From NCBI RefSeq assembly GCF_048403405.1, contig NZ_CP183129.1: a DNA stretch of 64,000 nucleotides; one strand, written 5' to 3'. This document shows, one piece after another, positions 19,504 to 24,091 of the stretch. A program made the position numbers and the translations under genes. The number at the start of each line of letters is the position of its first letter. The stretch's first letter is position 1. This stretch comes from Escherichia coli (GTDB taxonomy: Bacteria > Pseudomonadota > Gammaproteobacteria > Enterobacterales > Enterobacteriaceae). The notes beneath the pieces are model-generated. The model was not told where the DNA came from. It saw only the letters and a program-made list of their open reading frames with translations, and made no database searches.

Positions 19504-21573
19504 ATGTCTGAGAAAACTTTTCTGGTGGAAATCGGCACTGAAGAGCTGCCACCAAAAGCACTGCGCAGCCTGGCTGAGTCCTTTGCTGCGAACTTTACTG
19601 CGGAGCTGGATAACGCTGGCCTCTCACACGGCACCGTTCAATGGTTTGCTGCTCCGCGTCGTCTGGCGCTGAAAGTAGCTAACCTGGCGGAAGCGCAACC
19701 GGATCGTGAAATCGAAAAACGCGGCCCGGCGATTGCTCAGGCGTTCGACGCTGAAGGCAAACCGAGCAAAGCGGCAGAAGGCTGGGCGCGTGGTTGCGGT
19801 ATTACCGTAGACCAGGCTGAGCGTCTGACTACCGATAAAGGTGAATGGCTGCTGTATCGCGCCCACGTGAAGGGCGAAAGCACCGAAGCACTGCTGCCGA
19901 ATATGGTTGCGACTTCGCTGGCGAAACTGCCGATCCCGAAACTGATGCGCTGGGGCGCAAGCGACGTGCACTTCGTGCGTCCGGTGCACACCGTGACTCT
20001 GTTGCTGGGCGACAAAGTTATTCCGGCTACCATTCTGGGTATTCAGTCCGATCGCGTAATTCGCGGCCACCGCTTTATGGGCGAGCCGGAATTTACCATC
20101 GACAATGCCGATCAGTATCCGGAAATTCTGCGTGAGCGCGGTAAAGTCATCGCCGATTACGAAGAACGTAAAGCGAAGATTAAAGCCGATGCTGAAGAAG
20201 CGGCGCGTAAGATTGGCGGTAACGCTGACTTAAGCGAAAGCCTGTTGGAAGAAGTCGCTTCGCTGGTGGAATGGCCGGCTGTGCTGACCGCAAAATTCGA
20301 AGAGAAATTCCTCGCGGTGCCGTCTGAAGCACTGGTTTACACCATGAAAGGTGACCAGAAGTACTTCCCGGTGTATGCGAACGACGGCAAACTTCTGCCG
20401 AACTTTATCTTCGTTGCCAACATCGAATCGAAAGATCCGCAGCAGATTATCTCCGGTAACGAGAAAGTCGTTCGTCCACGTCTGGCGGATGCTGAGTTCT
20501 TCTTCAATACCGACCGTAAAAAACGTCTGGAAGATAACCTGCCGCGCCTGCAAACCGTGCTGTTCCAGCAACAGCTGGGTACACTGCGTGACAAAACTGA
20601 CCGCATCCAGGCACTGGCTGGCTGGATTGCTGAACAGATTGGCGCTGACGTTAACCATGCTACCCGTGCGGGCCTGCTGTCTAAGTGCGACCTGATGACC
20701 AACATGGTCTTCGAGTTCACCGACACCCAGGGCGTTATGGGGATGCACTACGCGCGTCACGATGGCGAAGCGGAAGATGTTGCAGTGGCGCTGAACGAGC
20801 AGTATCAGCCGCGCTTTGCCGGTGATGACCTGCCGTCTAACCCGGTAGCCTGTGCGCTGGCGATTGCTGACAAGATGGATACTCTGGCGGGTATCTTCGG
20901 TATCGGCCAGCATCCGAAAGGCGACAAAGACCCGTTTGCGTTGCGTCGTGCCGCACTTGGCGTACTGCGTATTATCGTTGAGAAGAACCTCAACCTTGAT
21001 CTGCAAACGCTGACCGAAGAAGCAGTGCGTCTGTATGGCGATAAGCTGACTAATGCCAACGTGGTTGATGATGTTATCGACTTTATGCTCGGTCGCTTCC
21101 GCGCCTGGTATCAGGACGAAGGTTACACCGTTGACACCATCCAGGCGGTACTGGCGCGTCGTCCGACTCGTCCGGCAGATTTCGATGCCCGTATGAAGGC
21201 GGTATCGCATTTCCGTACCCTGGATGCAGCTGCTGCACTGGCGGCGGCGAACAAACGTGTATCCAACATTCTGGCGAAATCTGACGAAGTGCTGAGCGAC
21301 CGCGTGAATGCTTCTACCCTGAAAGAGCCGGAAGAAATTAAACTGGCGATGCAGGTTGTGGTGCTACGTGACAAGCTGGAGCCGTACTTTGCGGAAGGTC
21401 GTTACCAGGATGCGCTGGTCGAACTGGCAGAGCTGCGTGAGCCAGTTGATGCTTTCTTCGATAAAGTGATGGTCATGGTTGATGACAAAGAATTGCGAAT
21501 CAACCGTCTTACCATGCTGGAGAAACTGCGCGAATTATTCCTGCGCGTTGCGGATATTTCGCTGTTGCAGTAA
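19504..21573 (+). CDS. glyS: glycine--tRNA ligase beta subunit (689 aa)
   Basis: 689-aa ORF 9 bp after glyQ; recognised GlyS sequence. Confidence 0.95.
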
Positions 21574-21590: not shown

Positions 21591-21617
21591 AGCCTGCCAT
21601 CTGGCAGGCTTTTTTTA
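21591..21617 (+). terminator. rho-independent terminator of glyQS
   Basis: agcctgccatctggcaggct hairpin followed by TTTTTTT. Confidence 0.75.
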
Positions 21618-21871
21618 TCGCTAAATAATACAGCAACCTTTAATAATCTTCTGATGAATAAAGATTATCTCATATATTAATTTTATGAGATTTTTTTAGG
21701 ATTATATCAAGGAGAAGAAACGAACTTATTAAGCTAGAATAGCCACGGGTGCTTGAGACTGTTTGTCTCAGGTATTCACCGAAAGGCAGACAGAGAAAAG
21801 CCCCACCTGACTATAAATCAAAAGTGTACTGCACCCATTTTGTTGGACGATGAAATGGAATAGCCCCTAAT

Positions 21872-22393
21872 ATGTCAAAGCCAAAATACCCTTTTGAAAA
21901 GCGCCTTGAAGTCGTGAATCACTACTTCACAACTGATGATGGTTACAGGATCATCTCGGCACGTTTTGGTGTCCCCCGAACCCAGGTCAGGACATGGGTT
22001 GCCCTCTATGAAAAACATGGAGAAAAAGGTTTAATTCCCAAACCTAAAGGCGTTAGTGCTGATCCAGAGTTGCGTATTAAGGTCGTGAAAGCTGTGATCG
22101 AGCAGCACATGTCCCTTAATCAGGCTGCTGCTCACTTTATGCTTGCTGGTAGTGGTTCTGTAGCCAGGTGGCTGAAGGTCTATGAAGAGCGCGGAGAAGC
22201 TGGTTTACGCGCGCTCAAGATTGGCACCAAAAGAAACATTGCAATATCAGTTGATCCAGAAAAAGCGGCATCAGCATTGGAGCTGTCAAAAGACCGACGC
22301 ATTGAGGATCTTGAAAGGCAAGTTCGATTTCTTGAAACGCGGCTTATGTATCTAAAAAAGCTGAAAGCCTTAGCTCATCCCACGAAAAAGTAA
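21872..22393 (+). CDS. insJ: IS150 OrfA (173 aa, HTH DNA-binding)
   Basis: 173-aa ORF inside IS150 left part. Confidence 0.9.
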   Translation: MSKPKYPFEKRLEVVNHYFTTDDGYRIISARFGVPRTQVRTWVALYEKHGEKGLIPKPKGVSADPELRIKVVKAVIEQHMSLNQAAAHFMLAGSGSVARWLKVYEERGEAGLRALKIGTKRNIAISVDPEKAASALELSKDRRIEDLERQVRFLETRLMYLKKLKALAHPTKK

Positions 22394-23241
22394 AAGTACT
22401 CAACGAGCTAAGGCAGTTTTATCCTCTTGATGAGCTTCTCAGGGCTGCGGAGATACCGCGCAGTACGTTTTATTACCATCTAAAGGCTCTCAGCAAGCCT
22501 GACAAGTATGCGGACGTTAAAAAGCGTATTGGTGAGATTTATCATGAGAATAGAGGCCGATACGGATACCGTAGGGTAACGCTGTCTCTTCATCGAGAAG
22601 GGAAACAGATTAACCATAAAGCTGTTCAGCGCCTGATGGGAACCCTCTCACTTAAGGCAGCGATTAAGGTCAAGCGATACCGCTCTTACAGAGGAGAGGT
22701 AGGGCAAACCGCCCCCAATGTTCTCCAAAGAGATTTCAAGGCTACGCGGCCAAACGAGAAGTGGGTTACCGATGTTACTGAATTTGCAGTCAATGGGCGC
22801 AAGCTGTATTTGTCTCCAGTAATAGATCTCTTCAACAACGAAGTTATTTCTTACAGCCTTTCGGAAAGACCAGTGATGAACATGGTCGAGAATATGCTCG
22901 ATCAGGCATTCAAAAAGCTTAATCCTCACGAGCATCCTGTTCTGCACTCTGACCAGGGATGGCAGTATCGTATGAGAAGATATCAAAATATCCTTAAAGA
23001 ATATGGTATTAAACAAAGCATGTCCAGAAAAGGCAATTGTCTGGATAATGCTGTGGTGGAGTGTTTCTTTGGAACCTTAAAATCGGAGTGTTTTTATCTT
23101 GATGAGTTCAGTAATATAAGCGAACTGAAGGATGCTGTTACGGAATATATTGAATACTACAACAGCAGAAGAATTAGCCTGAAATTAAAAGGTCTGACTC
23201 CAATTGAATATCGGAATCAGACCTATATGCCTCGTGTTTAA
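22336..23241 (+). CDS. insK: IS150 OrfB reading frame (DDE transposase catalytic domain), expressed as OrfAB fusion by -1 frameshift
   Basis: -1 frame relative to orfA is open from 22336 to the stop at 23241; slippery heptamer A AAA AAG at 22354-22360 in orfA frame; no in-frame ATG before 22636, so the 5' boundary is by frame only. Confidence 0.8.
22354..22360 (+). promoter_or_regulatory. programmed -1 ribosomal frameshift heptamer A AAA AAG of IS150
   Basis: Heptamer phased X XXY YYZ in the orfA frame, inside the orfA/orfB overlap. Confidence 0.8.
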
Positions 23242-23282
23242 CTGTCCAACTTTTTGGGGTCAGTACAAAGTGAGGCTACCCT

Positions 23283-23495
23283 ATGCCTGAACACCATAAG
23301 GTTAGCCTCTTACTCGTTGGAAATCAACACAGGGGGCTGGGAATGCCGCAGAAATATAGATTACTTTCTTTAATAGTGATTTGTTTCACGCTTTTATTTT
23401 TCACCTGGATGATAAGAGATTCACTGTGTGAATTGCATATTAAACAGGGGAGTTATGAGCTGGCGGCATTTTTAGCCTGCAATTTGAAAGAGTAA
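23283..23495 (+). CDS. mokA: mok-type overlapping reading frame of the hokA locus (70 aa)
   Basis: ORF starting 16 bp after the IS150 right end, co-terminal with hokA as in hok/sok-type loci. Confidence 0.45.
   Translation: MPEHHKVSLLLVGNQHRGLGMPQKYRLLSLIVICFTLLFFTWMIRDSLCELHIKQGSYELAAFLACNLKE
23343..23495 (+). CDS. hokA: Hok-family type I toxin (50 aa)
   Basis: MPQKYRLLSLIVICFTLLFFTWMIRDSLCELHIKQGSYELAAFLACNLKE, canonical Hok single-TM peptide. Confidence 0.85.
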   Translation: MPQKYRLLSLIVICFTLLFFTWMIRDSLCELHIKQGSYELAAFLACNLKE

Positions 23496-23627
23496 GAGTC
23501 TTCGGCGGGAAGTTATTCCCGCCTTTCTTACGGCGTTGCGCATTCTCATTGCACCCAAATTTATTTTTCACAAAAATAATAATAGATTTTATTACGCGAT
23601 CGATTATTTATTTCCTGAAAAACAAAT

Positions 23628-23656
23628 AAAAAAATCCCCGCCAAATGGCAGGGATC
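23628..23656 (-). terminator. rho-independent terminator of cspA
   Basis: On the minus strand: ccctgccatttggcgggga followed by TTTTTTT, 27 bp after the cspA stop. Confidence 0.55.
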
Positions 23657-23682
23657 TTAGATTCTGTGCTTTTAAGCAGAGA

Positions 23683-23895
23683 TTACAGGCTGGTTACGTT
23701 ACCAGCTGCCGGGCCTTTAGCGCCGCTTTCGATGGTGAAGGACACTTTCTGACCTTCGTCCAGAGATTTGTAACCATCGTTCTGGATAGCAGAGAAGTGT
23801 ACGAACACGTCTTTAGAGCCATCGTCAGGAGTGATGAAGCCGAAGCCTTTGTCAGCGTTGAACCATTTTACGATACCAGTCATTTTACCGGACAT
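23683..23895 (-). CDS. cspA: major cold-shock protein CspA (70 aa)
   Basis: [21 protein letters not shown]... with RNP1/RNP2 motifs. Confidence 0.95.
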
Positions 23896-24091
23896 AGTGT
23901 ATTACCTTTAATAATTAAGTGTGCCTTTCGGCGATATGGCGTGCTTTACAGATTTTGAAGCGTTAAAGGAATGTGCACTACGAGGGGTATCAACGATAAC
24001 TCTTGAAGGGACTTGCCTTACTACACTGCTTTAATGGTCTGTACGTCAAACCGTTGATGTGCATTAAGCCACGCATTGGCGGGTGTTGCAA
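23896..24091 (-). promoter_or_regulatory. cspA promoter and 159-nt 5' UTR
   Basis: -10 CTTAAT (24063-24068) and -35 TTGCAA (24086-24091) with 17-bp spacing; transcript start ACGGUUUGACG maps to about 24054; AT-rich upstream element. Confidence 0.6.

Follow-up and report, generated by a model that had tools for sequence, protein, structure and literature searches.

A simple IS150 insertion splits the hokA/mokA/sokA leader of an Escherichia coli genome and points to a recurrent IS150 target in hok/sok loci

The hokA/mokA/sokA locus of Escherichia coli, a chromosomal member of the hok/sok family, is considered here as it occurs in a 64,000-nucleotide stretch of contig NZ_CP183129.1 (assembly GCF_048403405.1; the window hereafter), where it carries a copy of the insertion sequence (IS) IS150. 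Its layout is best read against the hok/sok (parB) system of plasmid R1, in which the hok −10 box TATGAT lies at −12 to −7 and has been validated by mutation, tac occupies nucleotides (nt) 4–6 and ucb, an anti-Shine–Dalgarno (anti-SD) element, nt ~70–72, while the Sok promoter (pSok) lies within dcb (PMC9841398). The window shares with R1 the register of the hok −10 box, tac, ucb, the target hairpin of the mok SD and dcb, the Sok promoter in dcb and the 3′ fbi element; R1 hok/sok, however, is intact and functional in post-segregational killing, whereas the module in the window is split by a 1.4 kb IS. Chromosomal hok/sok loci disrupted by IS elements have reportedly been known since 1999, when Pedersen and Gerdes described hokA::IS150 of K-12. 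In K-12 MG1655 (hokA/sokA::IS150; b4455, b4647, b4614) the same IS has hit the leader and sokA at the same glyS–cspA locus and left hokA intact, but there the IS is inverted, no target duplication is present and 38–41 bp are deleted, in contrast to the clean insertion of the window, which has kept the mokA SD and ATG and the 5′ part and −10 box of sokA. Closer in arrangement is sokE::IS150 (PMC11551753), with a co-oriented IS150 and a 3-bp duplication in the same register; it differs in its paralogue, hokE, in its duplication, CCC, and in a linked phenotype (RecA-dependence, in an engineered background) for which there is no counterpart at hokA. The mokB(−13) and hokC(−71) insertions of REL4536 lines likewise combine an IS with a 3-bp duplication 13–14 nt upstream of the mok ATG, although they are of laboratory origin, in E. 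coli B and at paralogous loci. The IS186 copies beside hokC and hokE of K-12 also lie close to, and not inside, a hok frame, but they belong to another IS family and lie downstream of hok, affecting the 3′ end and fbi and not the leader or sok. Events of this kind are familiar (PMC2654758; PMC11551753), and ~900 public genomes already have the arrangement in their annotation; the insertion in the window is one more instance of that known kind, and a distinct one.

We consider it highly probable that a simple IS150 insertion, bounded by a duplication of AAG, has split the hokA/mokA/sokA leader and disabled the regulated pair, that the allele is distinct from that of K-12, and that it marks a recurrent hotspot. 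The Rfam model RF01794, which is named ‘sok’ and is a sense-strand model extending from the 5′ end of the hok mRNA to the hok AUG, matches four uninterrupted hokA loci from end to end (118–125 bits). In the window the match falls into two parts, with model positions 1 to ~83 at 21747–21824 (83 bits) and ~84–157 at 23271–23345 (43 bits), Infernal filling the rest with IS sequence. The insertion lies at nt ~+76–78 of the hokA leader and not in neutral spacer, 1 nt 5′ of the mokA SD and 13 nt from the mokA ATG; with IS150 in place, 15 nt separate its last base from the ATG, which begins 16 nt downstream, in agreement with the spacing of 16 bp given by the original prediction if the count starts at the last base of the IS and runs to the A of the ATG. 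Both halves of the structured leader (tac, ucb and target hairpin) are present, with IS150 between them, so that it is no longer contiguous.

The window order is glyS (19504–21573), its intrinsic terminator hairpin (21591–21610, +; terminator scan), which bounds the hokA locus on the left, a 78-nt block (21747–21824), IS150, mokA/hokA, the 3′ untranslated region (UTR) and cspA on the opposite strand, and IS150 does sit, as had been predicted, between the glyQS terminator and the mok/hok frames. The glyS-side half holds the hokA promoter, the transcription start (+1), tac, the ucb anti-SD and the 3′ part of sokA. By register homology with R1 the putative +1 lies at 21747 (+), at the start of GGGTGCTTGAG, and the predicted −10 box TAGAAT at 21735–21740 (+), that is, at −12 to −7. 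The 5′ fragment of the hokA leader (21747–21824, +) carries tac (GGGTGCTT, 21747–21754, +) and the ucb or mok anti-SD element (AAAGCCCC, 21797–21804, +), whose roles are taken from R1 (PMC9841398), and now runs into the left inverted repeat of IS150. On the other strand the 3′ fragment of sokA (21790–21824, −; CTTTTGATTTATAGTCAGGTGGGGCTTTTCTCTGT) comprises the loop and 3′ arm of the terminator stem–loop and the U-tract, and matches a 35-nt remnant that the MG1655 annotation lists as a sokA pseudogene, to the glyS side of its IS. The left flank has four A before the G of the duplication (ATCAAAAG, 21820–21823), as does the 100% identical strain 4621, against three (ATCAAAG) in all intact loci and in the other carriers of the same insertion; the extra A, which falls inside the SokA 3′ remnant, appears from these alignments to be a lineage-specific +1 homopolymer change.

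The cspA-side half holds the mokA SD and ATG and dcb, together with the sokA promoter and ~21 nt from the 5′ end of SokA, as well as the intact hokA open reading frame (ORF) and fbi. The mokA SD GAGG (23272–23275, +; placed by sequence register) and the ATG at 23283 sit in the 5′ arm of the Sok target hairpin, and the mokA frame (23283–23495, +) is in frame with hokA; dcb, by its register with R1, lies at about 23302–23309 (+). The 5′ end of SokA, set by analogy with sokC and sokB of MG1655 and by the promoter register, would lie at ~23291, 9 nt inside mokA, as compared with 9 nt inside mokC for sokC and 11 nt inside mokB for sokB. The 5′ fragment of sokA (23271–23291, −), consisting of the single-stranded recognition tail and the 5′ stem arm, remains attached to its promoter, for which homology suggests a −35 box TTGATT (23327–23322, −) and a −10 box TAACCT (23304–23299, −), the latter overlapping dcb as stated for pSok of R1 (PMC9841398). 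This promoter region (23299–23327, −) now faces the right inverted repeat of IS150. The hokA ORF (23343–23495, +) encodes 50 amino acids that match PF01848 over the full profile at 83 bits and are identical to HokA of the intact loci L004 and L005, which bears out the earlier reading that the Hok peptide is intact. Beyond it the 3′ UTR (23504–23557, +) contains a GC hairpin (23504–23523, +; terminator scan) and, at about 23543–23556 (+), the fbi element (...TTCTCATTGCACCC), which reads as complementary to the 5′ tac (GGGTGCTTGAGA) and is predicted to pair with it.

The locus thus retains a Hok/Gef ORF of ~50 amino acids, an overlapping mok frame and a 3′ fbi complementary to tac, but neither a contiguous leader nor an intact sok gene with promoter, RNA of ~55–60 nt and terminator hairpin, since sokA is cut inside its terminator stem–loop, which separates the promoter and 21 nt from the 35 nt that hold the terminator. 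It is a disrupted member of the hok/sok family. The promoter, +1, tac and ucb are now 1.4 kb from mokA, hokA and fbi, so that fbi is 1.4 kb further from the 5′ end at tac, and no start site downstream of IS150 was indicated at the window locus, where start sites were placed by homology. The native hokA mRNA of ~370 nt and the SokA RNA of ~55 nt would no longer be made, and the module would in consequence be disabled as a regulated toxin–antitoxin pair. That IS150 uncouples the toxin from its promoter and 5′ leader had been foreseen, and both the split RF01794 match and the −10 register speak for it; the account was incomplete in missing that sokA is cut and that ucb is lost. The comparison with uninterrupted hokA loci that it had called for places the insertion downstream of the putative promoter and within the leader and sokA.

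IS150 (IS3 family, IS150 group) occupies 21825–23267 (+), exactly 1443 bp, in the same orientation as hokA. Its termini, TGTACTG...CAGTACA, form imperfect inverted repeats of ~24 bp, and the full ends (TGTACTGCACCCATTTTGTTGGACG and TGTCCAACTTTTTGGGGTCAGTACA) begin and finish as 5′-TG...CA-3′. Direct reading of the sequence gives AAG on both sides (21822–21824 and 23268–23270) and nothing longer, so that the duplication is of 3 bp; the empty site ATCAAAG/TGAGG was read in intact loci and in L008 and L018. The InsJ-like orfA (21872–22393, +) encodes 173 amino acids with helix–turn–helix domains and a match to Pfam HTH_28, and its product is identical to OrfA of K-12. The orfB frame (22336–23241, +) is open, carries rve/DDE integrase domains (101.8 bits) and differs from OrfB of K-12 by two amino acids. 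A heptamer A-AAA-AAG (22354–22360, +) stands in the correct 0/−1 register for the predicted −1 programmed frameshift, and the identical locus in strain 4621 is labelled ‘IS3-like element IS150 family transposase, programmed frameshift’ by PGAP. As judged from these features IS150 is complete and apparently functional, and the original prediction was right in its description of the element (complete length, intact orfA and orfB, frameshift heptamer, AAG duplication) and in its limits of 21822–23270, which include both copies of the duplication. The arrangement is no chance product, recurring with 100% identity over 2.7 kb in several public genomes.

In 5426 complete E. coli genomes the alleles were counted by searches specific to a junction or an arrangement; the counts are phylogenetically non-independent and biased by over-sampled clones (K-12 derivatives, sequence type (ST) 131). 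An uninterrupted hokA locus was found in 2832 genomes (2790 with a stricter query), the window allele, with IS150 co-oriented and an AAG duplication, in 901/882, an inverted IS150 at the same AAG with mokA undeleted in 94, and the K-12 deletion allele in 1574, which puts IS150 in hokA of about 47% of complete genomes. The same choice of site recurs in the paralogues. The target reads ATCA(AAG)T-GAGGC in hokA (window, natural), ATC(AAC)C-GAGGC in hokB and ATCA(ACC)C-GAGGC in hokC (both from evolution lines) and TATCAA(CCC)T-GGGGC in hokE (natural isolates, IS co-oriented with hokE), the duplicated triplet being given in brackets; in 4/4 loci the 3-bp duplication lies exactly 1 nt 5′ of G(A/G)GGC. 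At this shared position the Sok terminator hairpin has its foot and the mok-SD/target hairpin begins. The laboratory cases are 1,446-bp IS150 insertions listed for REL4536 as ‘hokC (−71)’ in three lines and ‘mokB (−13) / trg (−326)’ in five (PMC5419217), and natural sokE::IS150 is known from XL1-Blue and >400 isolates (PMC11551753); our own leader search found the hokE leader interrupted in about 466 genomes, of which one example was read directly. For the paralogue sites the insertions of Finn et al. (2017) were mapped onto REL606 with the leader model; the mokB and hokE coordinates are in REL4536 numbering, which does not map directly to REL606, and the mokB site was recovered through the gene-relative annotations trg(−326) and mokB(−13). 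A further hokC-leader insertion (16,989; hokC −88) is listed at 1,489 bp instead of 1,446 bp and falls in the Sok terminator hairpin, on its 5′ arm, a different site and an odd size (PMC5419217). Targeting by resemblance to the inverted repeats was considered and rejected: the IS150 termini match the hokA, hokB and hokC targets no better than shuffled sequences, with the exception of one hokB 9-mer far from the insertion site.

On this evidence the trinucleotide 1 nt 5′ of the mok SD G(A/G)GGC is probably, if by no means securely, a precise and active IS150 hotspot in hokA, hokB, hokC and hokE, used in both orientations even within ST131. The frequency of IS150 could instead reflect selection for loss of a costly or useless toxin module, with no part played by target preference. 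In favour of such selection, IS150 insertions close to hok/sok and ldr loci increased in parallel in experimental populations, where they were read as loss of redundant functions (PMC5419217), sokE::IS150 and sokE+ differed in a measurable phenotype (PMC11551753), and the share of genomes with IS150 in hokA is as large as stated above. Selection alone, however, could make use of an insertion at any point of the promoter, leader or ORF, yet a single trinucleotide register is hit in four paralogues, with IS150 in either orientation. This points to target choice, and the toxin ORF is left intact. We regard selection in place of target preference as a possible but rather doubtful account, and selection and a hotspot are not mutually exclusive. 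In the literature surveyed, outside which the 1999 primary paper lies, the single-register hotspot was not found stated as such, although its parts are clearly known to specialists; the added value here lies in the allele census and in the recognition of a single-register IS150 hotspot over four hok/sok paralogues.

As to what the split module would still produce, transcripts from the hokA promoter would run into IS150 in the sense direction, while those from the sokA promoter would run into its right end, antisense to orfB, and reach a terminator-like hairpin with a T-run at 23224–23190. This hairpin (23190–23224, −; 15 pairs in a terminator scan), which the predicted fold of the chimeric RNA also shows, lies ~45 nt inside the right end and looks like an inward-facing terminator for transcription that enters IS150 across that end, in this case from the sokA promoter, whose predicted product would be a chimeric RNA of ~100–110 nt retaining the SokA recognition tail. 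The toxin would be expressed only by weak read-through or by outward transcription from the IS150 3′ end. Any such expression must be sub-toxic, because ~900 genomes stably carry the allele with hokA intact; all the IS-bearing alleles sampled have an intact hokA ORF. The possibility, raised by the original prediction, that outward transcription from the IS drives the toxin is plausible but unproven, and only the orientation seen in the window points the IS150 3′ end at mokA.

Several points weigh against a fully disabled module. The hokA +1 and both promoters were placed by register homology with R1, and a generic sigma-70 scan of the window locus flagged neither promoter, the hokA promoter being passed over by a consensus scan because its −35 is weak. 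IS150 significantly but modestly activated downstream regions in 12/55 cases, an effect credited to an outward 3′ promoter (PMC11101190), and such activation may leave the locus not fully silent; an mRNA arising by read-through from the IS would be without the ucb anti-SD. In partition-function calculations of the accessibility of the mok SD and AUG, the SD was paired in the native full-length, 3′-truncated and IS-read-through RNAs alike. Lastly, an intact chromosomal hokA, that of E. coli C, reportedly gives no post-segregational killing (bioRxiv 10.1101/2025.08.07.668861), so that being disabled may change little phenotypically.

In a rival proposal the insertion gives the module new wiring. 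Outward transcription from the IS150 3′ end, or read-through from the hokA promoter or the transposase promoter, would express mokA/hokA without ucb, while a chimeric antisense RNA from the sokA promoter, a 21-nt SokA tail joined to IS150 sequence and stopped by the minus-strand hairpin, would restrain the toxin and might dampen the transposase mRNA. The co-oriented IS150 has its 3′ end toward mokA, its reported activation of downstream DNA fits, and the terminator scan found no plus-strand terminator from the orfB stop to hokA. Intact loci have an identical sokA promoter and SokA 5′ tail, the minus-strand hairpin and T-run stand ~70–110 nt downstream of the SokA start, the hokA ORF is kept in IS-bearing alleles, and co-oriented outnumber inverted simple AAG insertions by ~9:1. 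That ratio, however, is confounded by clonal sampling, and the K-12 allele, which is incapable of such wiring, is even commoner. The gains downstream of IS150 were inconsistent as well as modest (PMC11101190), and a reporter test of the terminal 150 bp of IS150 detected no promoter activity (PMC12095673), so that the literature is in conflict over an outward IS150 promoter. Folding, which pairs the SD in native and chimeric RNAs alike, does not tell the two apart, and the presence of IS2 inside hokA in some carriers suggests that there is no strong constraint on the toxin. Rewiring of this kind seems improbable to us beside a module that is simply split and disabled. The IS2 carriers, EC19 (L009; 2246–3734 of its locus), EC20 and EC24, have a window-type IS150 together with IS2 in the hokA coding sequence, a second hit on an already disrupted locus, and a few other genomes carry further elements at the hokA locus, such as IS200C.

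Recurrence could be denied altogether if a single ancient insertion had spread vertically or by recombination, the inverted AAG form having arisen by inversion in place. The IS copies at the locus are diverged, by 9–17 differences between lineages, and the window-type junction is found on diverged mokA haplotypes, with identities over 120 nt that range between 100% and 94%, as expected of an old allele. ST131 tells against this history. Empty, (+) and (−) sites coexist there on identical flanks: strain 4433 (L018) carries IS150 in the (+) orientation and H105 (L017) in the (−) orientation with the same AAG duplication, the two having no flank mismatches and one IS mismatch, while a 400-nt query built from the 4433 flanks matches empty sites at 100% in the canonical ST131 genomes EC958, JJ1886, JJ1887, JJ2434, uk_P46212 and others. 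Empty sites on identical flanks imply that the insertion is younger than the clone. The shared duplication and the IS copies differing at only 1 nt might be taken to favour a flip in place, but we know of no established IS3-family mechanism, given copy-out-paste-in transposition, that turns an element around with its duplication kept. De novo IS150 insertions in the same register appeared in hokB (five lines) and hokC (three lines) during a short evolution experiment (PMC5419217), and natural isolates carry IS150 in that register in hokE. A single origin is, in sum, very unlikely, and the simplest reading of the ST131 states, as deduced from these alignments, is repeated independent insertion at one trinucleotide. 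The ST131 locus also has a hokA −10 box of TGGAAT, against TAGAAT in the window, and a spacer before the hokA ATG that is 1 nt shorter (GGGATG against GGGAATG); in ST131 the hokA promoter may therefore be weakened even where the locus is intact.

The allele also has to be set against that of K-12, since the original prediction took it to match the reported K-12 state of hokA. In MG1655 insJ/insK are divergent from hokA, that is, IS150 is inverted, and its flanks (...AAAGTT and TACTCG...) show no target duplication, the adjoining triplets being GTT and TAC. Missing from MG1655 are 38–41 bp, the stretch (G)AGGCTACCCTATGCCTGAACACCATAAGGTTAGCCTCT, which contains the mokA SD and ATG, the SokA 5′ part and the sokA −10 box. 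The window junctions read ...AAAAG/IS/AAGTGAGGC..., with the mokA SD and ATG retained, as against ...AAAGT(T/G)/IS/TACTCG... for the K-12 type, of which P19_598 (L007), from another lineage, has the form ...AAAGTG/IS/TACTCG. IS150 of the window matches the annotated MG1655 copy at 1434/1443 positions (99.4%; 9 differ), and the window flanks show single-nucleotide polymorphisms against K-12 and, over 2.7 kb, match the clinical isolates 4621, MS 69-1 and TUM1226 at 100%. Although the IS family and locus are the same, the left junctions are only 2 nt apart (that of K-12 lying 2 nt beyond the AAG insertion point) and reviews describe the K-12 hok loci as IS-inactivated and MG1655 sokA as disrupted by IS150 (PMC2654758; PMC11551753), the idea that the window simply carries the allele of Pedersen and Gerdes is refuted by orientation, duplication, deletion, IS differences and flank polymorphisms, with junction-specific searches parting the two cleanly (882 against 1574 genomes), and has next to no chance of being right. 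A search for a precursor of the K-12 allele, an inverted IS150 with its right inverted repeat beside an undeleted ...CTCTTAC, found none, and the inverted AAG allele was rejected as a simple precursor on account of its left junction (AAAG/ against AAAGTG/ or AAAGTT/). The K-12 deletion allele may go back to an insertion of its own that duplicated GTG, with an adjacent deletion of 41 bp afterwards.

On the cspA side of the locus, a 23-codon ORF (MRNAVRKAGITSRRRLLLFQIAG, 23472–23543, −) overlaps the 3′ end and 3′ UTR of hokA on the opposite strand; it is YsaE in the MG1655 annotation and a hypothetical protein according to PGAP in other strains. The cspA thermoregulator RNA (RF01766) is matched over its full length at 23628–24055 (−; 501 bits). 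The identical Csp protein is named cspE by PGAP in many genomes and cspA in others, an inconsistency of naming only.

What is known of K-12, where the mokA start is deleted and the IS points away, is not transferable to the clean, co-oriented allele, in which the surviving sokA promoter may also yield a chimeric SokA′–IS150 antisense RNA. The hokA locus is a homoplasic marker and unsuited to naive typing. The near-isogenic ST131 triplets (empty, + and −) provide a natural set in which to read out the effect of IS150 on a type I toxin and the fitness of hok/sok disruption, and the hotspot offers a tractable system for target choice in the IS3 family. If the hotspot is true, IS150 target capture would recognize a conserved sequence or structure of hok/sok leaders, such as their paired hairpins or convergent hok/sok transcription, and chromosomal hok/sok loci would act as IS150 traps, explaining why nearly half of complete E. 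coli genomes carry IS150 in hokA.

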